Assembly: GCA_964016885.1 (NCBI GenBank)
Contig: CAXHJY010001120.1
Span: 1-30,977, forward strand
Length of the DNA stretch: 30,977 nt
Direction: 5' to 3'
From: Eledone cirrhosa
Taxonomy: Eukaryota
The notes beneath the pieces were generated by a model that saw only the letters and a list, made by a program, of their open reading frames with translations, had not been told where the DNA came from and ran no database searches. Positions within the stretch are counted from its first letter, which is position 1; the number at the start of each line of letters is the position of its first letter. Both the position numbers and the translations under genes were made by a program. Positions 1,815 to 30,977 of this stretch are shown piece by piece.

Positions 1815-1999
1815 GGTGCGGGTGAAATGAATTGAGCTTAGCGGAAAAGTCTGGATACGGCGTGGTAGGGTCGGAAAGTGCTCTACTACGGGAGTAGGAG
1901 CTAGATAACGAAGGAAATGTGGTAAGGAACCAGGTGGACCATAACGCACCAAAGTACTCAATACTTGAGGTAGTAGAGTGGGTAATAGGAACCAGTAAG

Positions 2000-2093
2000 A
2001 CCCCGACAGCTGAGCTCAAGCCGTTTCGACGGCTAATTCTGGACTAAATGAACATTTATCCTGGTATTTAAATAGCCGATCTTCTCAAGGGGT
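2000..2093 (-). ncRNA. Type I hammerhead ribozyme, U3:A8 core variant (family A)
   Basis: Minus strand: ACCCC-UUGAGAA-GAUCGGCUA...UAGCCGUC-GAAA-CGGC(UUGAGCUCA)GCUG-UC-GGGGU. Stems I, II and III all pair, the triplet is GUC and loop III is palindromic. Confidence 0.8.
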
Positions 2094-2984
2094 AATTCCA
2101 TATATGGTCAAAGTGATTGTCAAAAATCAGTAGTAATTCTGTGGTTGCAAATTAGTAGGGGAGATGGTGGCTAAACCTGCCAGTAGGAGAAAGAGGGGAG
2201 GGGGTGGAGTAGACCCAATCAAGCGTTGGTAGTGCCAGCTACAGCTGGGCATGAGGTCAAAGAAGATACAGGGGAGGGGGAGGGGGAGGAAGTCGGAACG
2301 GTAGGTAGAACAATGGGGGGTAAAAATAGGAAAGAAAAAATACTGAGAGTGAAGAAAAGCAAATAAGTGTAAAGAAAAAATTAAATTCTACGACCTAGGT
2401 GTCAGGCTATTGTTAGGCGAGAATAAAATAAAGAAAGAAAGAAAGAAGTAAATAAATAAATAAATAAATAAATAAGGAAATAAGTAAAAGAACTAGGTGG
2501 GACGAATTAAGCAAGGACCCTTTTAAGAGGTATAAGTACGTAAATGATACGGTGACTGGTCAACAAAAGGGGCCAAAATACTAAAGAGACTACCACGAAA
2601 TAAACAATAAAGGTTTCCATCCCGGGCCAGCAACGACCCAGTGCAGCAAAGTGAACTTGTACGACATAATAATTCTGAGTCCCGGGAAAAATATATACTA
2701 ATGCTAACTCTAAAAGATCTAAAACAAGCTACATGAGAGTTCGTACGAAATAAAGGTAGAATACGGAGAAATAAGTTCAGAATCCACCCCGCCCAGAAGA
2801 AAAGCGAAGCAAGAAATACTGAAACGAAAAAATAAGGCATAAGTGCCACTAAGAAATATAGAGGGCACAGAGAATAGTGGGAGCGGTCGGAAAAGGGGGG
2901 CAAGTATCCGGGGTCTAAGCCAACTGCTATAAAGGGCGGAGTCCGCCAAATCTATCAAAGACTAGGGGAGGGGGGAGTGGGGGT

Positions 2985-5860
<2,876 letters not shown>

Positions 5861-6868
5861 ATTTTTTTTTTTTTCTGTAACATCATATTTTTTCTGTAAC
5901 ATCATAATTTTTCCTTGTACCATTATAGTTTTTTTTAGTATTATATGATTTATATTTCCTCATTTATTATGTAACCCAGTATGAATCATTTTGTATATAT
6001 TGTTTATGGTACTTGTTAATATAATGTTAACATTTTATCATTGTATTTCATTGTGACATCTATTTTTGTTTCTGTAAATTAACCGGGGATTATCTATTCT
6101 ACTTTATTATATTGTATTGAATTATATAATTTTGTTGTTTATTATTTGTTATAAGTTTTTCTTGTAATTATATCATATTATTGCCTCATGTATATTGGGT
6201 AGATGTATTAGTATTATTTTCACTATTACCATGCTTATTTTTAATATTCAAACTTCTAATAGGGCTTAATTTCTGTGTAATAGAACATAGATATGTGTAT
6301 TGTTATATGTGTGTGTGTGTGTGTGTGTGTGCGTGTGTGTGCGCACATATATACATGTATATTTTGTACCTTTTGATTTTTAATTTGGAATTTTAATGTT
6401 GGTATAAATATATTATTATTATAATGTATTATATTGTGTTATATATAATTCCTGCTCTATATAACCAAATTTGTTTAGATTTAGGTTGGTGGCTTTGGAC
6501 TATATTTGTAGGATGGTTCTTAATGTTATCTACATCCTTAGTTATTATAATTTTATTATTTTTATCTTTATTTTCATTTTTATTATCGTATATCTTTGCA
6601 AGACATTAGTGTATGTACACTCCAAATTCTTCAGAGTTTCTGGCTTGTATCTGCCGATATTACCTCTTGTTGTTTTGATTGCCCTGATGAGTCCTTAATA
6701 GGACGAAACATTGTCGGCTAATAAAAACTTTTGATGTATTAAAGGATTCTTTGTTTTGCTCTGTTAATTTTTTGGCTCTGTTTAACTGCATTGAGCTATA
6801 CCTTTTACTGTCATTTCTATAATACGAAGAGGGTGTTTAACTCAAACACGCTCCAGTATTCTAATCCT

Positions 6869-6870
<2 letters not shown>
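5861..6870 (+). mobile_element. Non-coding HHR-bearing element (family B; PLE 3' end/pLTR remnant or retrozyme-like)
   Basis: An AT/T-rich island between two (TA)n tracts. It has a minimal HHR ~150 nt from the right end followed by AATAAA, and a short tandem duplication (TTTTTTCTGTAACATCATA x2) at the left junction. Confidence 0.6.
6681..6718 (+). ncRNA. Minimal type I hammerhead ribozyme (family B)
   Basis: GCC-CUGAUGA-GUCCU(UAAU)AGGAC-GAAA-C(AUU)G-UC-GGC: perfect core, minimal stem III and GUC triplet. Confidence 0.9.
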
Positions 6871-8150
<1,280 letters not shown>

Positions 8151-8208
8151 AATATTAAACAAATAATGAATAAACAATGAGACAGTTCCTTATATTAAAC
8201 AAAAAAAG

Positions 8209-8359
8209 TTCATTATTTAACGATCGTTTCTAGGATATATATGTGTTAGAATTGGCATGCATATTCAACAGATCTATGTACAAAATTATACAAAATTATA
8301 CAAACTATCAAGATTAAATATACATACCAACACATATATACGCCGTCTTCAGAAATAAT
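8209..8359 (-). ncRNA. HHR-like motif, family C (5' strand of stem I clipped at the fold)
   Basis: AUUAUUU-CUGAAGA-long stem II-GAAA-C(GAUC)G-UU-AAAUAAUGAA. Confidence 0.6.
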
Positions 8360-8360
8360 C

Positions 8361-8514
8361 TTCATTATTTCTGAAGTCGGCGTATATATGTGTTGGTATG
8401 TATATTTAATCTTGATAGTTTGTATAATTTTGTATAATTTTGTACATAGATCTGTTGAATATGCATGCCAATTCTAACACATATATATCCTAGAAACGAT
8501 CGTTAAATAATGAA
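8361..8514 (+). ncRNA. HHR-like motif, family C, with core mutation (CUGAAGU)
   Basis: Same motif as 20034-20187 but with A9 changed to U at 8377, so probably impaired. Confidence 0.55.
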
Positions 8515-8710
8515 CTTTTTTTGTTTAATATAAGGAACTGTCTCATTGTTTATTCATTATTTGTTTAATATTTTATCTTGACTCTGTATACCGTTTATCT
8601 TTCACCGAAAGTGATTTTTCATTACATCTCTTCTTTCCATGATATCCGGAATACATTGAGTTCTTCATACGGATTGGACACTACCGTAAACTCTTGGTAG
8701 ATTTATCTAC

Positions 8711-9027
<317 letters not shown>

Positions 9028-9085
9028 AAATATTAAACAAATAATGAATAAACAATGAGACAGTTCCTTATATTAAACAAAAAAG

Positions 9086-9239
9086 TTCATTATTTAACGA
9101 TCGTTTCTAGGATATATATGTGTTAGAATTGGCATGCATATTCAACAGATCTATGTACAAAATTATACAAAATTATACAAACTATCAAGATTAAATATAC
9201 ATACCAACACATATATACGCCGTCTTCAGAAATAATGAA
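9086..9239 (-). ncRNA. HHR-like motif with long stem II, family C
   Basis: Mirror copy of 20034-20187. Confidence 0.65.
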
Positions 9240-9887
9240 GTATATTTATTGATAATAACAACAATTCAAAATTTCAGGTCCGTTTGGGAACAAAATTGAC
9301 CAATGAAAACACAAAGGGTTAAATGCAGTTCGGTGTGTGTATATACATGTAAAACCCTTACACATATTTACAAAAATGTATGTATAATTTGTATACGCAT
9401 ACTAAAAGGATGGATGCAAATACAAAATTTCAAGGTTAATGTCTCTGTAAGTTTATAATGCACAGATAAGATGCGTATTGACACACAAATATGAAATTAA
9501 GTATATAAATATATTTTTTCATACTCACACATATCCGTACAATCACACATACACGCGCGTATATGCATAAATATACACATAACCACGAACATACAAACAC
9601 ACACACACCCCCACTCACATTTATATATGTGGATATAAAATCATAAGCGCATGGATATTAATTCACTCACATAAACACTGGCACACACATTTAGATCAAG
9701 ATACAGAAATTAGGTGGGAGGGGGGGGAGAGGTCAGTATTCAACGGTCTGAGCAGACTGCCTAATATAGATGTATCTATAAACTAAGAAAATAAAAAATA
9801 ATAAATAATAAATAAATATTAAAGAGGAAAGAATAGAAAGAAAAAAGAAAAAAGAAAAAAGAAAAAAGAAAAAAGAAATATATCAAG

Positions 9888-9925
<38 letters not shown>

Positions 9926-10135
9926 CATACATATATATATATATATACACACATATATATATATACATATACATATATATACACATAGACACACACACAC
10001 ACATACATATATATACACACATATACAAACACATACATACATATACACACATCCACACTAAGAACATACATACACACACATATATAAACATATACATATA
10101 CACACATACATACATATACACATATACATACAAAT

Positions 10136-10196
<61 letters not shown>

Positions 10197-10540
10197 TATG
10201 TATATACACGTACATATACACACACATATACATATAATCACACATACTATATAGACACACATATATATAACCACACACATACATGCACATATACAACACT
10301 TACATACTAATATACATACAGATATACACATACATAGCTATATATACACACAAATATATACAGACTTACATATATACATACAGACAAATACTTACGCATC
10401 TATATATCGGTATATACATACAAACACCACTACACTATCACACAGCTTAGACATACAAAGAGAAAGGTATATACCTATACACACATACATATACAAATAG
10501 AAAAACATATAGATATATATATATATATATACACACACAC

Positions 10541-10581
<41 letters not shown>

Positions 10582-10803
10582 CATACATATACACATACAC
10601 ACACATACACATACACACACATACATACATGTACACACACATAGAAATATATACGCATACACACATACATATAAAGTCATACACACACATACACCTACAC
10701 GAACATACACATACACATATATAAAGATATATATACACACACACACACACACAACACATACACACACACATATATATAAAAAATAAATAATAAAGATATA
10801 TAC

Positions 10804-10862
<59 letters not shown>

Positions 10863-10865
<3 letters not shown>

Positions 10866-11476
10866 GGTGGCTGCCAACTCGTTTTCGAGTACGGCCACTA
10901 CTTTATATCCATGTAGGAGAACCCCTACTGATGCGCTGAACGAGTGTGACTTTTTAGTCCAGCCAGCGACTTGAAAGCTCTGGTACAAACACTACACTTG
11001 TGACAATTATTGACACATAGTGCTGGGCCCATGGTACCATGTGACGACAAATGCAGAGAGATCTCCAGATACAAAGCAATGCCTGTGCCGTGAAGCTTTT
11101 ATAGTGAGCAAAGGCACTGCACAAAGCCAGTCCCACTCTCTTAACCAAGATGATATTTACCAAAAAGAAGAACAAGTCAACATCATTGGATACCATCAGG
11201 GTTGCAGGTGTTATATCAGAGTTTTCCTTCTCCTAGAATTCTGCCTTGACAAAGGCTAAGGGGTCATCTCTCCCGGTGATTTTGGATGGCCATTGACTCT
11301 TAAGAGCTCCTTTGCCTTTTGACAGGTTTTGTTTTTAGTCCTGCAGGATGTCCAAAGTCACCCTCCTCACCAAGAAACCTTGGTGGGGTTGCCAGTTTAG
11401 TCGCCAACGACCCGACCATGGGACAGGTTGTACTGGAATACATGTTACCAGTAGCACCAACTGGTGACCTGACCAT
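10863..11476 (-). mobile_element. ~610-bp complex-sequence insert, possibly derived from an RTE-type 5'UTR/SINE (mirror copy)
   Basis: A higher-GC island inside simple repeats and the mirror of ~17804-18417. The family assignment is from memory of the CTAGGAGAAGGAAAACTCTG motif only. Confidence 0.35.
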
Positions 11477-11824
11477 ATATACACATACATATATATATAC
11501 ACACACATACATACACACATACATAGACATACATGTACATACATACACATACATCGATATACATATATATATATACACACATAGACATATACATACATAC
11601 ACACACAACTTACATACACACATATATATACATGTATATTCATACATAGAATTAGATATATAATCATACATACATATGCACTTACTTATACTCATATATA
11701 CAAATACATACGCATCCATATATGCGTATATACATAGAAACACCACTACAACCTCACCTAACTCAGACATACAAATAAAAATAAAAAGGCATATGTATAT
11801 ACATATATACACGCATTAATAGAG

Positions 11825-11874
<50 letters not shown>

Positions 11875-12099
11875 ATTCATATATATATATAGATACCCAC
11901 ACACACATACCACCATAAATACACATACAAACACCCACATATACATATATATACACACGTATATATATATATATACACACACATAAAAAACAGACATGCA
12001 CATATATATATATTTTTTTACACTTATATATACACATATTATATACACATACACAACCTCACATATACACACATACACATAAGTTATATTATAATAATA

Positions 12100-12136
<37 letters not shown>

Positions 12137-12224
12137 CATATATATATATATATATATACATATAAACATATACATACATATATACACACATACGAATATA
12201 GACATATATTCACACATAGACACC

Positions 12225-12256
<32 letters not shown>

Positions 12257-12522
12257 TACATATACACAGACACATATACACACTCACATATATATGTGTG
12301 TGCACACACACATATATACACACATACACACATATACACATAAACACATATATGTGTATACATGCACACACACACACATATATCCACATAGATACGAAGA
12401 TAGACATATAAATAGAGAGACATACATATATATACAACACACATACACACACATACATACACACACATATACATATACATACATATATATATATATATAT
12501 ATTTTTATATATACATATATAC

Positions 12523-12553
<31 letters not shown>

Positions 12554-13894
12554 CATACACATACACATACACACATTCACATACACATACATATACACAT
12601 GCATATATACACATATATACATACATACACACACTCATATATACACACACAATCTTACATTCATATTTGCATGCGCATATATGTATTTTTATATTCAGAT
12701 ATAAATACCCAAACCTATATAGACACCTACCTACATATATATTCATACATACACGCTTACAAATACAGATGATAATAGTATGGGGGAAAGGGGGGGTTTG
12801 GAGAAGGGGATCATAGTAAATATATGTTTCAAGAAACATAGAATATTTTCCGTATCTTGATCCAATGTATGTTTTTACATAGTTTCAGTGTTAGGAAATA
12901 CAATAAACAAGAACTAAGGCAAAATCTATGCATCTCAAAATAAACAAGTATACCATTAATTATATGTTAACTAAACCAAAGATAGTTAACATATTGATTT
13001 CTAAGGTGTAAATTAGTTAGGTTTATAATATTTGAAGCAGAATTTTGAAGTTAAATAGTAGTAGAGTATTAATTATAGTATAACTAAATTAAAGTTAATA
13101 ACGTTATGGTATCAATATTAGGAAATGAATTTAGTAATAGGGAAAAAAACAAATAAAGTATTACATCGGTAGTAGAATATAAATTATAGGTTAACTAAAT
13201 TAAAAATTATATATTTATTTCTATAGTATATGTTAATTAGGTATATAATAAATAAAACAGATATTGTATTTTATCAATAGCAGAATATAATTATATGCAA
13301 ATAGAAATCAAAATTAATACATATACATATACATACACATACATATATACATATATATACACATATATATATATATACATATATACACATATACATACAC
13401 ACACACATACACATACACATATACATATACATATTTTTTTCAAAAAATTGCATAGAATATATTAACTAGGTATATATCCAAAACACATCCCATTCTATGA
13501 TTACATGACATTCTGCAATTCGTCTGTATAAGGATACTAATTTTAAGCAAATTAAATTAAATTTTTAGGTTGATTAAAATTAAAACCAAATTATAAATAT
13601 ATTTCTAAAATGTATATTAATTAGGTCTATAATACTAAAAATTATTTCTCTGTCATTGGATACACGATATTATTTTGTTATATTTTATCTGTAAAAGAAT
13701 TATAATAAAAGGTTTAAATAAATTAAAATTAATCTATAAATTAAATTACTAAGTATATATTAGTAATATTTAAAGGTTTTTCACAATTTATGATTACATA
13801 ATATTTTATATTCTCATCTGTAATAAAATTTTAATTAAATTAAATTTATAGGTTAACTAACATTTAAATTAAATTAATTTCTAAAATAATGTTA

Positions 13895-14324
13895 TTAATT
13901 AGGTTTATAATATTTAAATGTTTTTTTTAGTTTATGATTACACGATATAATTAATTCCTGTCGTTTATTTAATAAGATATCCTTAGACTTCATTATTTCA
14001 AATAGTTCTTGGGAACATAATCTACATTCATTTCTATTATTTTGATAAGGGGTGGCTCTTTTGAGCACACTCCAGGTCAAATCATATTCTATATTCTTAT
14101 TTTTAAAACTATTGATTTTTTCTGCTAGAGATGTTGTATTAGCCAGTGCGGCATTTTTAAAACTATGCTTGTGGGTATTAAACCTTGTCTTAAAATTGTT
14201 AGAGGTAGCTCCTATATATGAGCAAATAGAATCTTTAGTTTTAACATTACATTTATAGACTATGTTGTTAACAAGACAATTCCCTTTTAATGGGCAGTTT
14301 GCTTTGTTTCTACAGTTACATCCT
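13895..14324 (-). pseudogene. Inverted duplicate of the GIY-YIG domain C-terminal portion
   Basis: GCNCRNKANC...YKPN* is identical to the end of the 14414..15385 ORF. The N-terminal 12 aa of the track ORF come from the junction. Confidence 0.88.
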
Positions 14325-14410
14325 AATAATATACAACATAATATTACCAACAAACACATCCTAATAAGTTACATCCTAATAATATACAACATAATATTAC
14401 CAACAAACAC
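14314..14410 (+). repeat. 44-bp direct duplication spanning the inversion junction
   Basis: AGTTACATCCTAATAATATACAACATAATATTACCAACAAACAC at 14314-14357 and 14367-14410, separated by ATCCTAATA. Confidence 0.92.
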
Positions 14411-14413
14411 CAA

Positions 14414-15385
14414 ATGAAAAGTACACACCTAAATGCCACCCACACTATACCCCAAAATACCAAATCTTCTAATATAAAGTATAGTAACTCTCAAAAAACT
14501 ACTCATCATACAACTCTAATAAATATTAATAATAAAACTCCTAATAAAAAGGATAAAACACCTAAATCTACAAATATAACTAAAAATGGTTGTGGTGAGA
14601 TCATTAACATTAATCCTCCTAGTAAAAATCACGATACAACCTATAAAAATAATAAAAATAATAAACAACATAGAAACCGTAATAGACGGGTTACTTGGTA
14701 TAATGCTCCATTTAATTTACAAGTTAAGGATAATATTGCTAAAGAATTTTTTTATATCCTTGAGAAAAACTTCCCGCCAAACCACAAATACCATCAAATC
14801 TTAAATAGGTCTACAGTTAAATTCTCATACTCTACAACAAATAACATAAAACAAAATATAAGTGCCTATAATGCATATAAATGTAAGAAAACCATAAGTA
14901 TACCACCAGTACATCAAATTAACCATAATATCTCCTCAAATACAGAATTAACGAAAGGATGTAACTGTAGAAACAAAGCAAACTGCCCATTAAAAGGGAA
15001 TTGTCTTGTTAACAACATAGTCTATAAATGTAATGTTAAAACTAAAGATTCTATTTGCTCATATATAGGAGCTACCTCTAACAATTTTAAGACAAGGTTT
15101 AATACCCACAAGCATAGTTTTAAAAATGCCGCACTGGCTAATACAACATCTCTAGCAGAAAAAATCAATAGTTTTAAAAATAAGAATATAGAATATGATT
15201 TGACCTGGAGTGTGCTCAAAAGAGCCACCCCTTATCAAAATAATAGAAATGAATGTAGATTATGTTCCCAAGAACTATTTGAAATAATGAAGTCTAAGGA
15301 TATCTTATTAAATAAACGACAGGAATTAATTATATCGTGTAATCATAAACTAAAAAAAACATTTAAATATTATAAACCTAATTAA
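14414..15385 (+). CDS. PLE C-terminal region: N/K/T-rich linker + CxCx5C + GIY-YIG endonuclease (5'-truncated, no RT present)
   Basis: RRVTWYNAPF..HKYHQILNRSTVKFSYS..CNCRNKANCPLKGNC..IVYKC..YIGAT..FKTRFNTHKHSF..CRLCSQE..LLNKRQELIISCNH. It is collinear with the family A C-terminus. The frame stays open upstream of the ATG into the junction duplication. Confidence 0.88.
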   Translation: MKSTHLNATHTIPQNTKSSNIKYSNSQKTTHHTTLININNKTPNKKDKTPKSTNITKNGCGEIININPPSKNHDTTYKNNKNNKQHRNRNRRVTWYNAPFNLQVKDNIAKEFFYILEKNFPPNHKYHQILNRSTVKFSYSTTNNIKQNISAYNAYKCKKTISIPPVHQINHNISSNTELTKGCNCRNKANCPLKGNCLVNNIVYKCNVKTKDSICSYIGATSNNFKTRFNTHKHSFKNAALANTTSLAEKINSFKNKNIEYDLTWSVLKRATPYQNNRNECRLCSQELFEIMKSKDILLNKRQELIISCNHKLKKTFKYYKPN

Positions 15386-16320
15386 TAACATTATTTTAGA
15401 AATTAATTTAATTTAAATGTTAGTTAACCTATAAATTTAATTTAATTAAAATTTTATTACAGATGAGAATATAAAATATTATGTAATCATAAATTGTGAA
15501 AAACCTTTAAATATTACTAATATATACTTAGTAATTTAATTTATAGATTAATTTTAATTTATTTAAACCTTTTATTATAATTCTTTTACAGATAAAATAT
15601 AACAAAATAATATCGTGTATCCAATGACAGAGAAATAATTTTTAGTATTATAGACCTAATTAATATACATTTTAGAAATATATTTATAATTTGGTTTTAA
15701 TTTTAATCAACCTAAAATTTAATTTAATTTGCTTAAAATTAGTATCCTTATACAGACGAATTGCAGAATGTCATGTAATCATAGAATGGGATGTGTTTTG
15801 GATATATACCTAGTTAATATATTCTATGCAATTTTTTGAAAAAAATATGTATATGTATATGTGTATGTGTATGTGTGTGTGTATGTATATGTGTATATAT
15901 GTATATATATATATATGTGTATATATATGTATATATGTATGTGTATGTATATGTATATGTATTAATTTTGATTTCTATTTGCATATAATTATATTCTGCT
16001 ATTGATAAAATACAATATCTGTTTTATTTATTATATACCTAATTAACATATACTATAGAAATAAATATATAATTTTTAATTTAGTTAACCTATAATTTAT
16101 ATTCTACTACCGATGTAATACTTTATTTGTTTTTTCCCTATTACTAAATTCATTTCCTAATATTGATACCATAACGTTATTAACTTTAATTTAGTTATAC
16201 TATAATTAATACTCTACTACTATTTAACTTCAAAATTCTGCTTCAAATATTATAAACCTAACTAATTTACACCTTAGAAATCAATATGTTAACTATCTTT
16301 GGTTTAGTTAACATATAATT
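15369..16320 (+). repeat. Degenerate AT-rich dispersed/tandem repeat in the 3' region (4-5 copies)
   Basis: ATTATANACCTAA(T/C)TAA at ~15369, 15648, 16030 and 16250, each followed ~51-55 bp later by a TTAGTTAACCTATAA-like motif. Mirrored at ~12960-13911. Confidence 0.6.
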
Positions 16321-16724
16321 AATGGTATACTTGTTTATTTTGAGATGCATAGATTTTGCCTTAGTTCTTGTTTATTGTATTTCCTAACACTGAAACTATG
16401 TAAAAACATACATTGGATCAAGATACGGAAAATATTCTATGTTTCTTGAAACATATATTTACTATGATCCCCTTCTCCAAACCCCCCCTTTCCCCCATAC
16501 TATTATCATCTGTATTTGTAAGCGTGTATGTATGAATATATATGTAGGTAGGTGTCTATATAGGTTTGGGTATTTATATCTGAATATAAAAATACATATA
16601 TGCGCATGCAAATATGAATGTAAGATTGTGTGTGTATATATGAGTGTGTGTATGTATGTATATATGTGTATATATGCATGTGTATATGTATGTGTATGTG
16701 AATGTGTGTATGTGTATGTGTATG

Positions 16725-16755
<31 letters not shown>

Positions 16756-17021
16756 GTATATATGTATATATAAAAATATATATATATATATATATGTATG
16801 TATATGTATATGTGTGTGTATGTATGTGTGTGTATGTGTGTTGTATATATATGTATGTCTCTCTATTTATATGTCTATCTTCGTATCTATGTGGATATAT
16901 GTGTGTGTGTGTGCATGTATACACATATATGTGTTTATGTGTATATGTGTGTATGTGTGTATATATGTGTGTGTGCACACACATATATATGTGAGTGTGT
17001 ATATGTGTCTGTGTATATGTA

Positions 17022-17055
<34 letters not shown>

Positions 17056-17143
17056 GGTGTCTATGTGTGAATATATGTCTATATTCGTATGTGTGTATAT
17101 ATGTATGTATATGTTTATATGTATATATATATATATATATATG

Positions 17144-17180
<37 letters not shown>

Positions 17181-17405
17181 TATTATTATAATATAACTTA
17201 TGTGTATGTGTGTATATGTGAGGTTGTGTATGTGTATATAATATGTGTATATATAAGTGTAAAAAAATATATATATATGTGCATGTCTGTTTTTTATGTG
17301 TGTGTATATATATATATATACGTGTGTATATATATGTATATGTGGGTGTTTGTATGTGTATTTATGGTGGTATGTGTGTGTGGGTATCTATATATATATA
17401 TGAAT

Positions 17406-17453
<48 letters not shown>

Positions 17454-17803
17454 CTCTATTAATGCGTGTATATATGTATATACATATGCCTTTTTATTTT
17501 TATTTGTATGTCTGAGTTAGGTGAGGTTGTAGTGGTGTTTCTATGTATATACGCATATATGGATGCGTATGTATTTGTATATATGAGTATAAGTAAGTGC
17601 ATATGTATGTATGATTATATATCTAATTCTATGTATGAATATACATGTATATATATGTGTGTATGTAAGTTGTGTGTGTATGTATGTATATGTCTATGTG
17701 TGTATATATATATGTATGTATATCGATGTATGTGTATGTATGTACATGTATGTCTATGTATGTGTGTATGTATGTGTGTGTATATATATATGTATGTGTA
17801 TAT

Positions 17804-18414
17804 ATGGTCAGGTCACCAGTTGGTGCTACTGGTAACATGTATTCCAGTACAACCTGTCCCATGGTCGGGTCGTTGGCGACTAAACTGGCAACCCCACCAA
17901 GGTTTCTTGGTGAGGAGGGTGACTTTGGACATCCTGCAGGACTAAAAACAAAACCTGTCAAAAGGCAAAGGAGCTCTTAAGAGTCAATGGCCATCCAAAA
18001 TCACCGGGAGAGATGACCCCTTAGCCTTTGTCAAGGCAGAATTCTAGGAGAAGGAAAACTCTGATATAACACCTGCAACCCTGATGGTATCCAATGATGT
18101 TGACTTGTTCTTCTTTTTGGTAAATATCATCTTGGTTAAGAGAGTGGGACTGGCTTTGTGCAGTGCCTTTGCTCACTATAAAAGCTTCACGGCACAGGCA
18201 TTGCTTTGTATCTGGAGATCTCTCTGCATTTGTCGTCACATGGTACCATGGGCCCAGCACTATGTGTCAATAATTGTCACAAGTGTAGTGTTTGTACCAG
18301 AGCTTTCAAGTCGCTGGCTGGACTAAAAAGTCACACTCGTTCAGCGCATCAGTAGGGGTTCTCCTACATGGATATAAAGTAGTGGCCGTACTCGAAAACG
18401 AGTTGGCAGCCACC

Positions 18415-18417
<3 letters not shown>
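17804..18417 (+). mobile_element. ~610-bp complex-sequence insert, possibly derived from an RTE-type 5'UTR/SINE
   Basis: Sharp boundaries against simple repeats. It contains GTTGGCGACTAAACTGGCAACCCCACC and CTAGGAGAAGGAAAACTCTG, which recall RTE 5'UTRs (unverified). Confidence 0.35.
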
Positions 18418-18478
<61 letters not shown>

Positions 18479-18700
18479 GTATATATCTTTATTATTTATT
18501 TTTTATATATATGTGTGTGTGTATGTGTTGTGTGTGTGTGTGTGTGTATATATATCTTTATATATGTGTATGTGTATGTTCGTGTAGGTGTATGTGTGTG
18601 TATGACTTTATATGTATGTGTGTATGCGTATATATTTCTATGTGTGTGTACATGTATGTATGTGTGTGTATGTGTATGTGTGTGTATGTGTATATGTATG

Positions 18701-18755
<55 letters not shown>

Positions 18756-19089
18756 ATATATATATATATATATCTATATGTTTTTCTATTTGTATATGTA
18801 TGTGTGTATAGGTATATACCTTTCTCTTTGTATGTCTAAGCTGTGTGATAGTGTAGTGGTGTTTGTATGTATATACCGATATATAGATGCGTAAGTATTT
18901 GTCTGTATGTATATATGTAAGTCTGTATATATTTGTGTGTATATATAGCTATGTATGTGTATATCTGTATGTATATTAGTATGTAAGTGTTGTATATGTG
19001 CATGTATGTGTGTGGTTATATATATGTGTGTCTATATAGTATGTGTGATTATATGTATATGTGTGTGTATATGTACGTGTATATACATA

Positions 19090-19148
<59 letters not shown>

Positions 19149-20033
19149 ATTTGTATGTATATGTGTATATGTATGTATGTGTGTATATGTATATGTTTAT
19201 ATATGTGTGTGTATGTATGTTCTTAGTGTGGATGTGTGTATATGTATGTATGTGTTTGTATATGTGTGTATATATATGTATGTGTGTGTGTGTGTCTATG
19301 TGTATATATATGTATATGTATATATATATATGTGTGTATATATATATATATATGTATGTATGTGTATATATATATATATATATATATTTTCTTGATATAT
19401 TTCTTTTTTCTTTTTTCTTTTTTCTTTTTTCTTTCTATTCTTTCCTCTTTAATATTTATTTATTATTTATTATTTTTTATTTTCTTAGTTTATAGATACA
19501 TCTATATTAGGCAGTCTGCTCAGACCGTTGAATACTGACCTCTCCCCCCCCCTCCCACCTAATTTCTGTATCTTGATCTAAATGTGTGTGCCAGTGTTTA
19601 TGTGAGTGAATTAATATCCATGCGCTTATGATTTTATATCCACATATATAAATGTGAGTGGGGGTGTGTGTGTGTTTGTATGTTCGTGGTTATGTGTATA
19701 TTTATGCATATACGCGCGTGTATGTGTGATTGTACGGATATGTGTGAGTATGAAAAAATATATTTATATACTTAATTTCATATTTGTGTGTCAATACGCA
19801 TCTTATCTGTGCATTATAAACTTACAGAGACATTAACCTTGAAATTTTGTATTTGCATCCATCCTTTTAGTATGCGTATACAAATTATACATACATTTTT
19901 GTAAAATATGTGTAAGGGTTTTACATGTATATACACACACCGAACTGCATTTAACCCTTTGTGTTTTCATTGGTCAATTTTGTTCCCAAACGGACCTGAA
20001 ATTTTGAATTGTTGTTATTATCAATAAATATAC

Positions 20034-20187
20034 TTCATTATTTCTGAAGACGGCGTATATATGTGTTGGTATGTATATTTAATCTTGATAGTTTGTATAA
20101 TTTTGTATAATTTTGTACATAGATCTGTTGAATATGCATGCCAATTCTAACACATATATATCCTAGAAACGATCGTTAAATAATGAA
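20034..20187 (+). ncRNA. Type I HHR-like motif with ~115-nt stem II region, family C
   Basis: UUCAUUAUUU-CUGAAGA-[CGGCG-UAUAUAUGUGUUGG...CUAACACAUAUAUA-UCCUA]-GAAA-C(GAUC)G-UU-AAAUAAUGAA. It has a perfect 10-bp stem I and a palindromic minimal stem III, but the base of stem II pairs poorly. Confidence 0.68.
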
Positions 20188-20383
20188 CTTTTTTTGTTTA
20201 ATATAAGGAACTGTCTCATTGTTTATTCATTATTTGTTTAATATTTTATCTTGACTCTGTATACCGTTTATCTTTCACCGAAAGTGATTTTTCATTACAT
20301 CTCTTCTTTCCATGATATCCGGAATACATTGAGTTCTTCATACGGATTGGACACTACCGTAAACTCTTGGTAGATTTATCTAC

Positions 20384-21998: not shown

Positions 21999-22160
21999 GC
22001 TCAAGTATTAATGTAAGGGAGATATATAAATATGGTTTTATAAATATAGTTTTCCATTTATTTAATATTGTAAATATACTCCAAATATTTGTCGAGTGCT
22101 TTTATATCAGTTATAAATATTTACTAGTTGTAACCCAACAATTTTAAATATAACTTTACA
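21488..22160. mobile_element. HHR element family E: long minus-sense arm + short plus-sense arm + ~88-bp tail
   Basis: 47-bp inverted repeat 21488-21534 / 22026-22072, HHR in the left arm, tail 22073-~22160, and (TA)n on both sides. Confidence 0.7.
21532..21597 (-). ncRNA. Minimal type I hammerhead ribozyme (family E)
   Basis: UAUUUUGU-CUGAUGA-AGGCAUAGCAUAUU(GUU)AAUAUGAUAUCCCC-GAAA-UAUAUA-UA-AUGAAAUA: an 8-bp stem I with two G-U pairs and a palindromic stem/loop III. Confidence 0.72.
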
Positions 22161-23442
<1,282 letters not shown>

Positions 23443-23671
23443 TAAACAATTAAGTTAAAAAAATGTACATCCACATATGTATACTGAAATACTAGTATGC
23501 ATATGATTACACACACGTATACATATGTAGATGTACCGAGTTTTTCACTGGTCACTTTACTGTGAGTGTCCAGCTATTCTGTATGTAAACACACAGACAA
23601 ACCGGTTTTTAGAGTCATACTGGGTTTTTTAGGAAACACCTTTCCTCTATTCTCCAGAAAGCCAGACAAGG

Positions 23672-23716
23672 AATATTGAACTAGTTTCGATGTTGTTACA
23701 TCTCATCAGCAATATT
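23672..23716 (-). ncRNA. Minimal type I HHR, family D copy 1
   Basis: AAUAUUG-CUGAUGA-GAUGU(AACA)ACAUC-GAAA-CUAG-UU-CAAUAUU. Confidence 0.9.
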
Positions 23717-24140
23717 TACCTATCTTCCGGCCTCTCTAGAGAATCGTAAAAGCACATATCGTTATATGCTTTTTCTATGAAAATTAGTAGTGGGCAGACT
23801 AATTTGCATAGAGCGTGAGTACGTACCGGTTCAACGGAGACGATAAAAACAAATAACGAAACGAAATTAAATTTCGTTTCGTTTGTAACTCACTTTTGTA
23901 TGACTGACGCTTAAACAATTAAGTTAAAAAAATGTACATCCACATATGTATACTGAAATACTAGTATGCATATGATTACACACACGTATACATATGTAGA
24001 TGTACCGAGTTTTTCACTGGTCACTTTACTGTGAGTGTCCAGCTATTCTGTATGTAAACACACAGACAAACCGGTTTTTAGAGTCATACTGGGTTTTTTA
24101 GGAAACACCTTTCCTCTATTCTCCAGAAAGCCAGACAAGG

Positions 24141-24185
24141 AATATTGAACTAGTTTCGATGTTGTTACATCTCATCAGCAATATT
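24141..24185 (-). ncRNA. HHR family D copy 2
   Basis: Identical motif. Confidence 0.9.
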
Positions 24186-24610
24186 TACCTATCTTCCGGC
24201 CTCTCTAGAGAATCGTAAAAGCACATATCGTTATATGCTTTTTCTATGAAAATTAGTAGTGGGCAGACTAATTTGCATAGAGCGTGAGTACGTACCGGTT
24301 CAACGGAGACGATAAAAACAAATAACGAAACGAAATTAAATTTCGTTTCGTTTGTAACTCACTTTTGTATGACTGACGCTTAAACAATTAAGTTAAAAAA
24401 AATGTACATCCACATATGTATACTGAAATACTAGTATGCATATGATTACACACACGTATACATATGTAGATGTACCGAGTTTTTCACTGGTCACTTTACT
24501 GTGAGTGTCCAGCTATTCTGTATGTAAACACACAGACAAACCGGTTTTTAGAGTCATACTGGGTTTTTTAGGAAACACCTTTCCTCTATTCTCCAGAAAG
24601 CCAGACAAGG

Positions 24611-24655
24611 AATATTGAACTAGTTTCGATGTTGTTACATCTCATCAGCAATATT
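24611..24655 (-). ncRNA. HHR family D copy 3
   Basis: Identical motif. Confidence 0.9.
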
Positions 24656-25081
24656 TACCTATCTTCCGGCCTCTCTAGAGAATCGTAAAAGCACATATCG
24701 TTATATGCTTTTTCTATGAAAATTAGTAGTGGGCAGACTAATTTGCATAGAGCGTGAGTACGTACCGGTTCAACGGAGACGATAAAAACAAATAACGAAA
24801 CGAAATTAAATTTCGTTTCGTTTGTAACTCACTTTTGTATGACTGACGCTTAAACAATTAAGTTAAAAAAAAATGTACATCCACATATGTATACTGAAAT
24901 ACTAGTATGCATATGATTACACACACGTATACATATGTAGATGTACCGAGTTTTTCACTGGTCACTTTACTGTGAGTGTCCAGCTATTCTGTATGTAAAC
25001 ACACAGACAAACCGGTTTTTAGAGTCATACTGGGTTTTTTAGGAAACACCTTTCCTCTATTCTCCAGAAAGCCAGACAAGG

Positions 25082-25126
25082 AATATTGAACTAGTTTCGA
25101 TGTTGTTACATCTCATCAGCAATATT
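25082..25126 (-). ncRNA. HHR family D copy 4
   Basis: Identical motif. Confidence 0.9.
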
Positions 25127-25550
25127 TACCTATCTTCCGGCCTCTCTAGAGAATCGTAAAAGCACATATCGTTATATGCTTTTTCTATGAAAATTAGTAG
25201 TGGCAGACTAATTTGCATAGAGCGTGAGTACGTACCGGTTCAACGGAGACGATAAAAACAAATAACGAAACGAAATTAAATTTCGTTTCGTTTGTAACTC
25301 ACTTTTGTATGACTGACGCTTAAACAATTAAGTTAAAAAAATGTACATCCACATATGTATACTGAAATACTAGTATGCATATGATTACACACACGTATAC
25401 ATATGTAGATGTACCGAGTTTTTCCACTGGTCACTTTACTGTGAGTGTCCAGCTATTCTGTATGTAAACACACAGACAAACCGGTTTTTAGAGTCATACT
25501 GGGTTTTTTAGGAAACACCTTTCCTCTATTCTCCAGAAAGCCAGACAAGG

Positions 25551-25595
25551 AATATTGAACTAGTTTCGATGTTGTTACATCTCATCAGCAATATT
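25551..25595 (-). ncRNA. HHR family D copy 5
   Basis: Identical motif. Confidence 0.9.
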
Positions 25596-25773
25596 TACCT
25601 ATCTTCCGGCCTCTCTAATTTAATTTCGTTTCGTTATTTGTTTTTATCGTCTCCGTTGAACCGGTACGTACTCACGCTCTATGCAAATTAGTCTGCCCAC
25701 TACTAATTTTCATAGAAAAAGCATATAACGATATGTGCTTTTACGATTCTCTAGAGAGGCCGGAAGATAGGTA

Positions 25774-25818
25774 AATATTGCTGATGAGATGTAACAACAT
25801 CGAAACTAGTTCAATATT
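25774..25818 (+). ncRNA. HHR family D copy 6
   Basis: Identical motif on the plus strand. Confidence 0.9.
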
Positions 25819-26242
25819 CCTTGTCTGGCTTTCTGGAGAATAGAGGAAAGGTGTTTCCTAAAAAACCCAGTATGACTCTAAAAACCGGTTTGTCTGTGTG
25901 TTTACATACAGAATAGCTGGACACTCACAGTAAAGTGACCAGTGAAAAACTCGGTACATCTACATATGTATACGTGTGTGTAATCATATGCATACTAGTA
26001 TTTCAGTATACATATGTGGATGTACATTTTTTTAACTTAATTGTTTAAGCGTCAGTCATACAAAAGTGAGTTACAAACGAAACGAAATTTAATTTCGTTT
26101 CGTTATTTGTTTTTATCGTCTCCGTTGAACCGGTACGTACTCACGCTCTATGCAAATTAGTCTGCCCACTACTAATTTTCATAGAAAAAGCATATAACGA
26201 TATGTGCTTTTACGATTCTCTAGAGAGGCCGGAAGATAGGTA

Positions 26243-26287
26243 AATATTGCTGATGAGATGTAACAACATCGAAACTAGTTCAATATT
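26243..26287 (+). ncRNA. HHR family D copy 7
   Basis: Identical motif on the plus strand. Confidence 0.9.
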
Positions 26288-26583
26288 CCTTGTCTGGCTT
26301 TCTGGAGAATAGAGGAAAGGTGTTTCCTAAAAAACCCAGTATGACTCTAAAAACCGGTTTGTCTGTGTGTTTACATACAGAATAGCTGGACACTCACAGT
26401 AAAGTGACCAGTGAAAAACTCGGTACATCTACATATGTATACGTGTGTGTAATCATATGCATACTAGTATTTCAGTATACATATGTGGATGTACATTTTT
26501 TTTAACTTAATTGTTTAAGCGTCAGTCATACAAAAGTGAGTTACAAACGAAACGAAATTTAATTTCGTTTCGTTATTTGTTTT

Positions 26584-27422
<839 letters not shown>

Positions 27423-27424
<2 letters not shown>

Positions 27425-29356
27425 GCTAGTGAGGAAGGACGAGAACAAGGGGGACGAAATAAGTAACTTCAGGCCCATAACACTGCTAAATACAGAGTTA
27501 CAGATTTTGGCCAAGGTGCTAGCAAAGAGGTTGGCGCTTGTCGTGGGCAACCTGGTGGGAGATGCGCAGACATGCGCTATCCCGTCCAGGTCCATCCATG
27601 ACAACCTCCACCTCATGCGATACATCATAGAGAGGGTTGGGAACGAACCCGGCTTTGGTGGGGCTCTGATCAACTTGGATCAATCTAAGGCGTTCGATAG
27701 GGTCGACCATGGTTACCTGGATGCGGTGCTAGCGGCGGCAGGCTTCGGACCCGTTTTCAGGGCTGGATCACTGCTATGCACAGCAGCCGCATCTGCTCTA
27801 GGTCAAAGTGAACGGCTACCTCTCGGAGCCGTTCAAAATCGCGCGGTCCATCCGACAAGGGTGCCCTCTCTCCTCCCTTCTGTATGTGTTGACTCTCGAG
27901 CCACTACTGCGGAAGTTGGAGTTGTTGCAGGGCATCCCTTTGGAACCGGGATTGCGGAAAGCGGTGTCGGCCTACGCCGATGACGTGACAGTAATGGTGT
28001 CGACGGCCTCCGAAATCGAGGCGGTCGGCACCTTACTGGAGGAGTATGAAAAGTTCACAGGGGCTAAGCTGAACCGGGACAAGTCGATCGGTTTGCAACT
28101 CGGCACGTGGAGGGGCAGACCGATGCCCTCCGACGGCGTCGTCGGACGCTGGACGGAGGGCCCGGTGAAGTTGCTCGGGGTCTGGTTCGGACCGGACCTC
28201 CAGGTGGAGAAAAACTGGGCGGAGGTTACGAACAGGGTGTTTGCACTGACCCAGAAGTGGGCCAGTTGCAAACTATCCCTGAAAGGTCGGGCGGAGGTGG
28301 CGAACACCTACATAGCGTCCGTCATCTACTACCGCCTGACCGTAGTGCCCTGCCCAAGGGAAACCCTCACCAAGATGGAGCGCGCGCTCTTCCAATTCCT
28401 TTGGAAGAGGCGGGCTCCTATGGTGAGGAGATCCATCTGCTGTCAACACCCTTCGAAAGGAGGGCTGGGGATGCCGTGGCTAATGATGCGTAAACACGCT
28501 TTAAGGCTACGGCACCTCTACGTATTCCTCACCGGACAACCGGTGTGGGCCTCGTTTGTGAGACGAACATTTCCCAGACTCGTCTCACTCACCGAGCTGC
28601 AATCCTGGGTCAAGCAAAGACCGAGAAAACTGGGCGCCTGGCACACTGAGTGTGCCCAGGCGCTCACCGCCCTCTGGCAGGCGGATCCGGTTATCAGTGG
28701 AGACTCCACCGCAACATTCTATAGAGGGCTGGTACGCAGCAGGTGCGACGACGCCCTCGGAGAAGCCCTAGACATGGAGGAGGACGAACTGGCCAGCCTG
28801 TTCGGTAGGACATTCAGCCCGGGACCTATGGACAACTTCCAGAAGTCCCTGGCCTGGCAGTGCTACCGAGGGGCTTTACCCGTTCGAGAAAGGCTCTACA
28901 GACACGGGCGCCCGGGTAGGGACCCCGCCAAAAAGATCTGTCCCAGATGCGTGTGCGACGAGGAAACCGTTGCACACGCATTGGTACACTGCTCGGGCGT
29001 AGCCGATCTGTGGGGCTATGTCGAACAACTGCTGTCAAGGGTGGGACCGATCCGGTTGACCACCGAGTCTATTGTAATGATCAAGCCGCCTCCCCCCTTC
29101 AAAGATGAAGCAGAGGCGGTGTTTTCTGTGCGTAATAGCCATGGCGAAAGAGGTTGTATGGTGGACGCGTCTGAAAGGACTGAGGTCAGGCACCTTTCTC
29201 TCTGGCCAACAACTGGTCCGTTTCTTCCGATACCATTTCGGAAGAAGGATCAGGATGGAGAGAGAGGTGCTGCACCCCAGCCGTTTCTATGAAAGATGGG
29301 TGAAAGTGGCGAGAATGGCCCGTGTGAATGGGCCTTCACTCTACATCAGACTATAG
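27423..29356 (+). pseudogene. LINE ORF2 fragment: RT domain + C-terminal zinc-binding region, frameshifted
   Basis: [60 protein letters not shown] and CPRC..ETVAHALVHC. There are frameshifts at ~27760, ~27800 and ~29100-29120, and the stop is at 29354-29356. Confidence 0.9.
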
Positions 29357-29618
29357 GTGAGGAAGATGAAAGACCAAGGGAGCACCCCTTCTCTGTGCTC
29401 CTGAGGAGAAGGGTTGCACACTTTTTTCGGGGGTGTGTGCGACCCCCCAAGGCGCCTCCTCTCTATTGAGGATTTTGTTAAAAATTTTATTTTTTGTTAT
29501 ATCTTATTTTATTTTATATTTTGTTATTGCCTCCTCCTTATTGAGGACGCCTTTTTGTGTAAACTCCCCCCTTTGTACTTGTCCCACTTTTGATGCCCTA
29601 GTGGCAAATAAAAGAAAC
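27423..29618 (+). mobile_element. 5'-truncated L1/Tx1-clade non-LTR retrotransposon
   Basis: GC-rich island with an RT ORF2 fragment, a T-rich 3'UTR, and AATAAA plus a short A-rich end at ~29607-29617. Confidence 0.9.
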
Positions 29619-29670
29619 ATATCTATCTATCTATATATATAAAAATGAATGTATGTTTGTTTGTTTGTCC

Positions 29671-30151: not shown

Positions 30152-30286
30152 ATAGTGTCTGTTTCACATTACTTCCCTTCCACTCCCATTACAGGAATTC
30201 TTTTTCAGCTAGCCCTTAACTAAGTGCTGTAATTTGATATCTTCATTTCGTCTGTCCTTATTTTCCTGACCTGGACACATACGTGG

Positions 30287-30977
30287 ACCGACATCATTCC
30301 AAGAATTGAGAACAGTAAACGGTCAAGTATGTGCCACTTATCGTGAAGCTTGCCAAGAATTAAATCTTCTTGAAAATGATGGACATTGGGACACTTCACT
30401 CGCTGATGCATCGAATACTGCTCGACCAAAGCAAATACGCACATTATTCTCAATAATATTGACAACGTGCTTCCCATCAAATCCAAAAGATCTTTGGGGA
30501 AAATATAAAGACTACATGAGTGAAGACATCCTACATCGTTTGCGTGCAACAAATCAAAATATGAATATTCAATTCACACAAAATGTGTATAATGAAGCAT
30601 TGGTTTCCATTGAGGTCATATGTTTAGCAATCGCTAACAAAACATTGGTACAATTGGGAATGCCTGCGCCGAATCGATCTGTAAACGACAAACAAACTTT
30701 GATGTCGCCGAATTGGGTACATTTGTTCAAACGAATCTTCCCAAATTGCTACCAGAACAACGCATAGTATATGACCAAATTATGCAGGCAATTATAAGTC
30801 AAAGCGGCGGATTGTATTTTATAGATGCGCCCGGTGGTACAGGCAAAACTTTTCTCATTTCACTTATTTTGGCAACTATACGATCAGAAATAATATTGCA
30901 CTGGCAATCGCATCATCTGGAATTGCGGCAACTCTTTTAGATGGTGGCCGAACAGCACATTCAGCCCTGAAATTGCC
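30287..30977 (+). pseudogene. Helitron RepHel fragment (pre-helicase region and Pif1-family helicase motifs I/Ia), frameshifted
   Basis: PTSFQELRTVNGQVCATYREAC..LLENDGHW..QIRTLFSIIL, then EQRIVYD..FIDAPGGTGKTFL, then in a shifted frame ASSGIAATLLDGGRTAHSALKLP. Confidence 0.92.

Follow-up and report, generated by a model that had tools for sequence, protein, structure and literature searches.

The tandem repeat in the analyzed contig of Eledone cirrhosa is best read as one insertion of a dispersed non-LTR retrozyme, which bears the two-arm scar of a PLE and was likely reverse-transcribed in trans by a PLE, probably from a circular monomer. We put the probability of this reading at roughly 0.6. 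Mobilization of the 469-nt repeat by a PLE, considered apart from the nature of the template, is very likely. An earlier note on this DNA had proposed a retrozyme-type family with a PLE signature and a (TA)n target; this interpretation holds, but three of its parts do not, namely the use of a neighboring PLE as special evidence and the terms "minimal" and "viroid-like". The parts of the insertion are listed below by their positions in the window, that is, the whole stretch of 30,977 nt that was analyzed.

22154-23444: left (TA)n/(TACA) target tract
23445-25617, minus strand: left arm of 4.64 units, with its 5' end at unit position 410; its 3' end, on the 23445 side, lies at unit position 236 (inner start site) and abuts (TA)n
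25617-25618: head-to-head junction, where the 5' ends of both arms meet with a 1-nt overlap
25618-26586, plus strand: right arm of 2.07 units, with its 5' end at unit position 275; its 3' end, on the 26586 side, lies at unit position 303-305 (outer start site) and abuts (TA)n, the last bases being shared with the TA tract
25812-26280, plus strand: single monomer of 469 nt, from cut site to cut site, the origin of all unit numbering
26516-26583, plus strand: tail of about 70 nt, from the inner to the outer start site, absent from the end of the left arm
26546-26574, plus strand: hairpin of 13 bp immediately upstream of the outer start site, retained in a sister family as well
26584-27422: right (TA)n/(TACA) target tract
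25763-25834, plus strand: canonical type I hammerhead, predicted cut after 25811
26232-26303, plus strand: type I hammerhead, predicted cut after 26280
25535-25606, minus strand: type I hammerhead, predicted cut at 25558
25066-25137, 24595-24666, 24125-24196 and 23656-23727, minus strand: four further type I hammerheads, predicted cuts at 25089, 24618, 24148 and 23679

A period of 469 was found by TRF in both blocks, with 4.6 copies at 23443-25617, 2.1 copies at 25617-26583, and 99% matches. The blocks are inverted, the ribozyme sense being minus in 23445-25617 and plus in 25618-26586. The GC content of the unit is 35.6%, its longest stop-free frame is 57 aa, and the frame scan of the 469 nt detected no RT or GIY-YIG frame, so that an autonomous PLE was rejected as its identity. 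The array of nearly identical, non-coding 469-nt monomers described earlier is thus borne out. The differences between units had been called single-base homopolymer indels; they are indeed indels in base runs, with zero substitutions, but their size is 1-2 nt, one unit having two additional T residues. The tail is the most conserved part of the unit. Since both flanks are (TA)n, any target-site duplication would be invisible. A 5'-truncated LINE-type RT frame (RVT_1, zf-RVT) is located directly after the right TA tract at 27420-29620 (plus strand). A broken frame with a P-loop motif, which we take to be Helitron/PIF1-like, is located at 30270-30977 (plus strand); a Pfam search of 30270-30764 gave no match.

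All seven tandem units of the window contain a canonical type I hammerhead. Rfam Hammerhead_HH9 matched seven times in the window at 36.5 bits, under its gathering score of 52, with an E-value of 7e-6 when the whole window was searched and 1.1e-7 when one unit was searched. The ribozyme consists of a CUGAUGA...GAAA core, a stem I of 6 bp, a stem II of 4-5 bp with a UAACAA loop, and a stem III formed by the palindromic ACUAGU. According to the definitions in the accessible text of PMC4209133, canonical metazoan type I ribozymes have a helix I of 6 bp, a helix II of 4 bp, and a short palindromic helix III, whereas the "minimal" hammerheads of PLEs have a helix II of 7-8 bp and a helix I of 4-5 bp. 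By these definitions the ribozyme of the window is the canonical metazoan form, and "minimal" was the wrong class for a helix I of 6 bp and a helix II of 4-5 bp. The cuts predicted after 25811 and 26280 on the plus strand are the same as those named in the earlier note. The GUU triplet occurs throughout the window as stated there, but not family-wide, GUC being present instead at 81 of 360 junctions. GUU is a poor cleavage triplet, and its presence in the subfamily of the window counts against the reading given at the outset. The weak palindromic stem III is predicted to favor dimer-assisted cleavage; a similarly weak palindromic helix III is described for axolotl HHR_Amex1, which needs dimers (PMC7229834, accessible text).

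At the sequence level, the unit has the features by which non-LTR retrozymes are characterized in the available text of Cervera and de la Pena 2020 (PMC7229834). Like the retrozymes of coral, mussel, and axolotl described there, it is a low-GC, non-coding tandem unit with one canonical type I hammerhead, a stable fold, and thousands of copies. The circular fold of the unit is predicted at -154.7 kcal/mol (z -10.3 against 60 dinucleotide shuffles), compared with -121.3 for the antisense. Units of 461-484 nt were found here versus a range of 150-450 bp in that work, and circular RNA was shown there, whereas the present family is known from genomic sequence alone. The 469-nt unit lies within the retrozyme range of 51-972 bp given in the consulted part of Li, Clavereau and Pollet (bioRxiv 10.64898/2026.07.22.740005).

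Viroids and viroid-like satellite RNAs resemble the unit in size, high self-pairing, and hammerhead. Viroid-like replicons, however, replicate through RNA only and usually carry ribozymes in both polarities, whereas the unit has a DNA phase, a ribozyme on a single strand only (scan of one unit), and a ribozyme fold left open in the predicted circle. Because no sign of RNA-to-RNA replication accompanies these properties, "viroid-like" overstates the case.

The family is dispersed and abundant. In the genome (G000), exact patterns, whose counts are lower bounds, matched the ribozyme at least 8,379 times, the outer end followed by TA at least 2,129 times (at least 2,129 insertions), and two inner ends at least 464 and at least 546 times; the reversed-pattern controls for ribozyme, outer end, and inner end gave 0 matches each genome-wide. 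The retrozyme-type family thereby gains far stronger support than a single locus could give. About 200 of the more than 2,100 insertions were examined in all. In 70 loci, sampled by similarity (39 of 288 and 38 of 763 candidates scored) or by ribozyme position (the first places listed) and not by where arms end, the 3' ends of arms cluster at two sites (122 of 127), with 68 at 296-308 and 54 at 220-240; the other 5 lie elsewhere. A strict rule places 112 of the 127 directly next to (TA)n. Among 53 head-to-head pairs, 48 combine one inner with one outer end. The PLE-type insertion signature and the (TA)n target, both claimed earlier for the window, are therefore confirmed in this sample. The inner and outer combination was counted in 122 of 139 pairs after addition of loci chosen by end patterns, a count biased by that choice. 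Some seemingly single arms carry a tiny opposite arm that ends at the other start site.

The same anatomy bears on the possibility that the inverted multimer is a long-read fold-back or an assembly artifact in a contig that is small and unplaced. The window, an entire contig of 31 kb, holds several palindromes, as such an artifact might; however, its arms are unequal and end at family-wide fixed sites, the anatomy is the same at more than 100 chromosomal loci, and short-read contigs, possibly from the source sample, give TA junctions at the same positions. We give practically no weight to an artifact at this locus, and for the family it is already refuted.

Arms have a median length of 1.1-1.2 units with fixed 3' ends, and their 5' ends are distributed uniformly round the unit (KS p 0.20, n=278), except that positions 1-4, at the cut site, hold slightly more than their share (7 of 278, p 0.011); both arms of locus L047 begin there. 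The 139 head-to-head junctions comprise 88 with microhomology, 11 blunt, and 40 with filler. In 57 of 122 pairs the inner arm exceeds the outer in length, and the lengths of paired arms are correlated (Spearman 0.37, p 2e-5), which indicates that the arms arose in two syntheses rather than as a fold-back copy. A shared phase of both arms was moreover found at only 6 of 139 junctions, and fold-back copying was rejected as the general source of the inverted arm. Twin priming from a single linear RNA, in which the outer arm would end where the inner begins, was rejected as weak (31 of 122 pairs versus 21 expected).

We consider it very improbable that the unit is no more than a coding PLE's terminal repeat (pLTR) or a satellite of the ordinary kind. 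Homology to TEs, mostly PLE ends, is reported for 24 of 57 Xenopus retrozyme families (bioRxiv 10.64898/2026.07.22.740005, consulted part), and a rare coding parent is conceivable beyond the roughly 200 insertions inspected. Against this, no frame continues the unit at a fixed phase: among 348 unique 5' ends (two-arm junctions count twice, and 14 proved to be sister-family matches), 283 are joined to an opposite arm and 23 to TA, while a same-direction piece adjoins 6, a gap 2, and other sequence 34. PLE frames near arrays are at least 480 nt away, the ribozyme is canonical rather than of the PLE-minimal kind, and dispersed short arrays with fixed ends are unlike a satellite. A pLTR was rejected on the lack of a contiguous PLE frame at a fixed position among about 200 sampled insertions, and a conventional satellite on the short median arm and fixed ends; the few arrays of more than 30 units may be secondary growth. 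Two arrays of at least 30 units (G000:C1:5.738-5.752 Mb and C1:81.85 Mb) have block-like variant patterns, which suggest later DNA-level expansion. A third array of this size, at C1:95.94-95.96 Mb, was recognized from spaced matches only.

The scar closely resembles the products of PLEs. Purified PLE cuts and extends both target strands and starts at two internal RNA sites, with the tail between them (PMC11167929, available text). The two fixed start sites, the tail, and the (TA)n target match this behavior and make mobilization by a PLE likely. Poseidon of Anolis (Frangieh et al. 2024, PMC11167929) shares with the present family the use of both strands, two internal RT starts, an AT-rich target, and a hammerhead upstream of the start sites. 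It differs, in the part of the paper available, in being autonomous and coding, in its tail of 30-40 nt versus about 70 nt here, and in starting at an AC-rich stem-loop rather than U-rich sites; only linear templates were tested there. Insertions of the Neptune/Naiad type (Craig et al. 2021, PMC8557442, available text) likewise contain partial tandems, an inverted 5'-truncated copy, a tail at either end, and a (TA)n bias with no discernible target-site duplication, but these are PLEs, whereas the retrozyme unit has no RT or GIY-YIG frame.

The following course of events would account for this anatomy. Arrays would be transcribed as multimers, paired hammerheads are predicted to cut the multimers into monomers, and a host ligase would circularize the monomer as in other retrozymes. 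A PLE RT/GIY-YIG dimer would bind the conserved segment 222-305 and nick both (TA)n strands, one nick priming at about 305 and the other at about 231-236, the positions where arm ends are found. Each RT would make a varying number of turns across the ligated cut site, and the two cDNAs would be joined head to head in random phase by microhomology or short templated filler, as the junctions display.

Rolling-circle copying of a 469-nt circle appears to fit best, and a circle is probably the main template, as far as genomic copies can tell. The uniform spread of 5' ends round the unit speaks for a circle, as do the cut-site junctions, of which 358 of 360 have no indel, a rate (2/360) below that of the rest of the unit. 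In 37 arrays of at least three units, 404 departures from the family majority are fixed in every unit of their array; most of them are subfamily markers common to several arrays and not independent, but 9 are substitutions private to one locus. Single-unit changes number 210, and a further 58 changes, common to subsets of units, speak against a circle. The array at G000:C1:30.83 Mb, with 19.7 units in two arms, has 3 private fixed changes and only 0.11 internal substitutions/kb. A recent monomer bottleneck is implied by arrays of 12-20 units in which both arms carry private fixed changes and internal variation is nearly absent.

The same PLE-driven insertion might instead draw on an uncut linear multimer transcript or a multimeric circle, the arrays being lengthened and homogenized at the DNA level and the ribozyme cutting rarely or late. 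We regard this as rather unlikely, although several observations favor it. The anole PLE works mainly on uncut RNA, and insertion proceeds normally with ribozyme mutants (PMC11167929, available text); 8 of 9 frog retrozyme dimers are uncleaved, and local tandem amplification is favored, in the consulted part of bioRxiv 10.64898/2026.07.22.740005. Mosaic arrays of unit variants, which could not be made from a single monomer circle, occur at L034, which mixes two haplotypes, at L038, which alternates two, at L056, and in three long arrays, and arrays of more than 30 units contain block duplications. Moreover, 4.5 near-identical units of 3,531 bp stand in tandem in coding PLE family A as well, so a multimer is in itself no proof of a small circle. 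An uncut multimer, however, does not sit well with locus-private substitutions fixed through both arms of 12-20-unit arrays; repeated 5' truncation would shrink arrays each generation unless the monomer were re-amplified; and two retrozyme families preserve the core of the ribozyme and the pairing of stem II.

Jumping of the RT from end to end between linear self-cleaved monomers, without ligation, is far less probable again. The excess of 5' ends at the cut site, the L047 arms, and L351, which resembles a jump from the repeat onto PLE mRNA, would agree with it, but the low indel rate at cut-site junctions and the otherwise uniform 5' ends would not. The excess hints that some templates are cleaved; rolling of a circle is still preferred as the main route. 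A search of sequencing runs for this stretch listed six runs of unrecorded kind, with 3 organism codes, and none recorded as RNA. Contigs from 4 of the 6 contain units joined head to tail throughout, which tandem DNA explains equally, so they are uninformative on circles or expression. Runs X4 and X6, of other organism codes, each gave a single, identical unit variant on window 25630-26090; contamination, a relative, or RNA may be its source.

Several measures argue for selection at the RNA level, as judged on the predicted fold. In 22 units of different subfamilies, 99.3% of the cells in 145 predicted pairs are paired, and G-U wobbles, which can pair on the ribozyme strand only, account for many of the changes. 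Two-sided change was found in 6 of the 145 pairs, including an A-U/U-A swap in stem II (11 versus 11 units), a count not above shuffles (62 of 500 reach 6), and relatedness among the 22 units inflates the remaining pairing measures. Segment 222-305 has 2 variable columns of 84 versus 68 of 385 elsewhere, a contrast partly built in by end-pattern sampling. A sister family with a unit of about 424 nt (L177:2097-2520, minus strand; also L148, L178, L286, and L347) is colinear with the 469-nt unit at about 61% identity and gave at least 12,131 ribozyme matches. Its core is CUGACGA and its triplet GUA; the ribozyme, the head-to-head arms, and a similar predicted fold are all retained, and the arms end at homologous sites, with 12 inner and 10 outer ends abutting TA. 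Further hammerhead families, with a long stem II and a TATATA-type stem III of the PLE "minimal" kind, were seen at L033, L046, L051, L057, L135, L148, and other loci.

Three coding PLE families are present in the window as follows.

1-2984, minus strand: copy of PLE family A
2000-2092, minus strand: candidate type I hammerhead of family A, predicted cut at 2005, found by eye, with stems reproduced by RNAfold
5879-6870, plus strand: terminal piece of PLE family C
6678-6722: hammerhead of family C (Hammerhead_1, 31.7 bits)
8150-20383: insertion of PLE family B with a 5'-truncated frame, GIY-YIG region at 14342-15385
8150-8710: second, small palindromic insertion of family B
10862-11473 and 17807-18418: 610-bp dispersed repeat in both arms of family B, present at many other loci at 95-99%

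Each family has two TA-abutting ends, and the tails measure about 83, 137, and about 100 nt. Family B is the neighbor whose inverted arm and tail were reported in the earlier note, and these are real: arms at 9028-14324 and 14956-20246, with a 137-nt tail to 20383 and a microsatellite-rich 3' region of about 5 kb mirrored in the 5.3-kb inverted arm. As special evidence for trans-mobilization the neighbor fails, since the unit has no similarity to the PLEs of the window beyond chance words of TA-like sequence and the anatomy is common to all three PLE families and the sister retrozyme family; the link survives only in that one of four hybrid junctions involves family B. Family A, with a 3,531-bp unit and an intact 784-codon frame, is very young: 17 of 40 scored copies are identical over the query, and its 4.5 tandem copies lie at one locus (G000:C1:437.198-437.214 Mb, L133-L135); its protein lends itself to in-vitro study. 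Its candidate hammerhead, missed by the Rfam search, has U3-A8 in place of C3-G8, a change tolerated in the hammerhead core, and a long stem II insertion. The full unit of family C, at other genomic sites, is about 4.85 kb with a 915-codon frame. Atlas places the PLE frames, the 784-codon frame of family A included, in RT/GIY-YIG clusters at 0.96-0.99; Pfam and PDB searches of these frames gave no match. A motif common to the outer start sites of the repeat and family A was rejected (shuffle p 0.011-0.019, non-significant over 18 comparisons).

Four of the sampled arm 5' ends join a PLE, each of a different family; these hybrids were found by sampling insertions. At L061 an inner-ended arm is joined head to head to a 128-nt piece of family A that extends to the outer site of this PLE; at L352 the head-to-head partner of an inner-ended arm is a 2,196-nt piece of family B, which likewise stops at its own outer site. 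At L062 an outer-ended arm is joined to 1.8 kb of coding family D, apparently ending at D's outer site (outer with outer), and at L351 a family E fragment lies in tandem, together with E's inverted arm. The first two have the form that co-insertion would predict, while all four could be deletions between neighboring insertions. No second hybrid of the L061 type was found among the 40 of 2,562 candidates scored with a query spanning that junction. Since four different families are joined, no single helper is singled out, and the helper may be several PLE families. A more specific scheme, in which the two active sites of a PLE dimer roll one ribozyme-made circle from two starts and several PLE families load it, leaving hybrids, is offered tentatively. 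If true, the hybrids would preserve direct genomic traces of a circular RNA that had hijacked the enzyme of a retrotransposon, and would show that separate templates give rise to the two PLE arms.

PLE help and rolling-circle copying were proposed for animal retrozymes in 2020 (PMC7229834, available text) and have been a hypothesis since. Li, Clavereau and Pollet also conclude that PLEs are the partner, in the consulted part of their preprint (bioRxiv 10.64898/2026.07.22.740005), on the evidence of co-occurrence and pLTR homology, and ascribe tandems to local amplification; the present unit gave no pLTR homology, and its insertion anatomy points to multimers made at insertion. The two start sites, head-to-head arms, and strict (TA)n target are not described in the accessible text of PMC7229834, and a literature search gave no description of the 469-nt family, the two-start-site scar, or the hybrid arms, though Dfam, Repbase, or supplements may hold the family. 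The two-start-site insertion scar on a retrozyme gives unusually direct genomic support for PLE mobilization. The arm statistics also bear on the origin of PLE inverted arms and tails, favoring two independent syntheses over fold-back. With the sister family, more than 20,000 ribozyme copies are present in one genome. The family offers a defined test, with a template, two base-resolution start sites, a target, and, encoded alongside it in the genome, PLE frames that are young and intact, through which the standing hypothesis of mobilization becomes amenable to the in-vitro assay published in PMC11167929 (available text).
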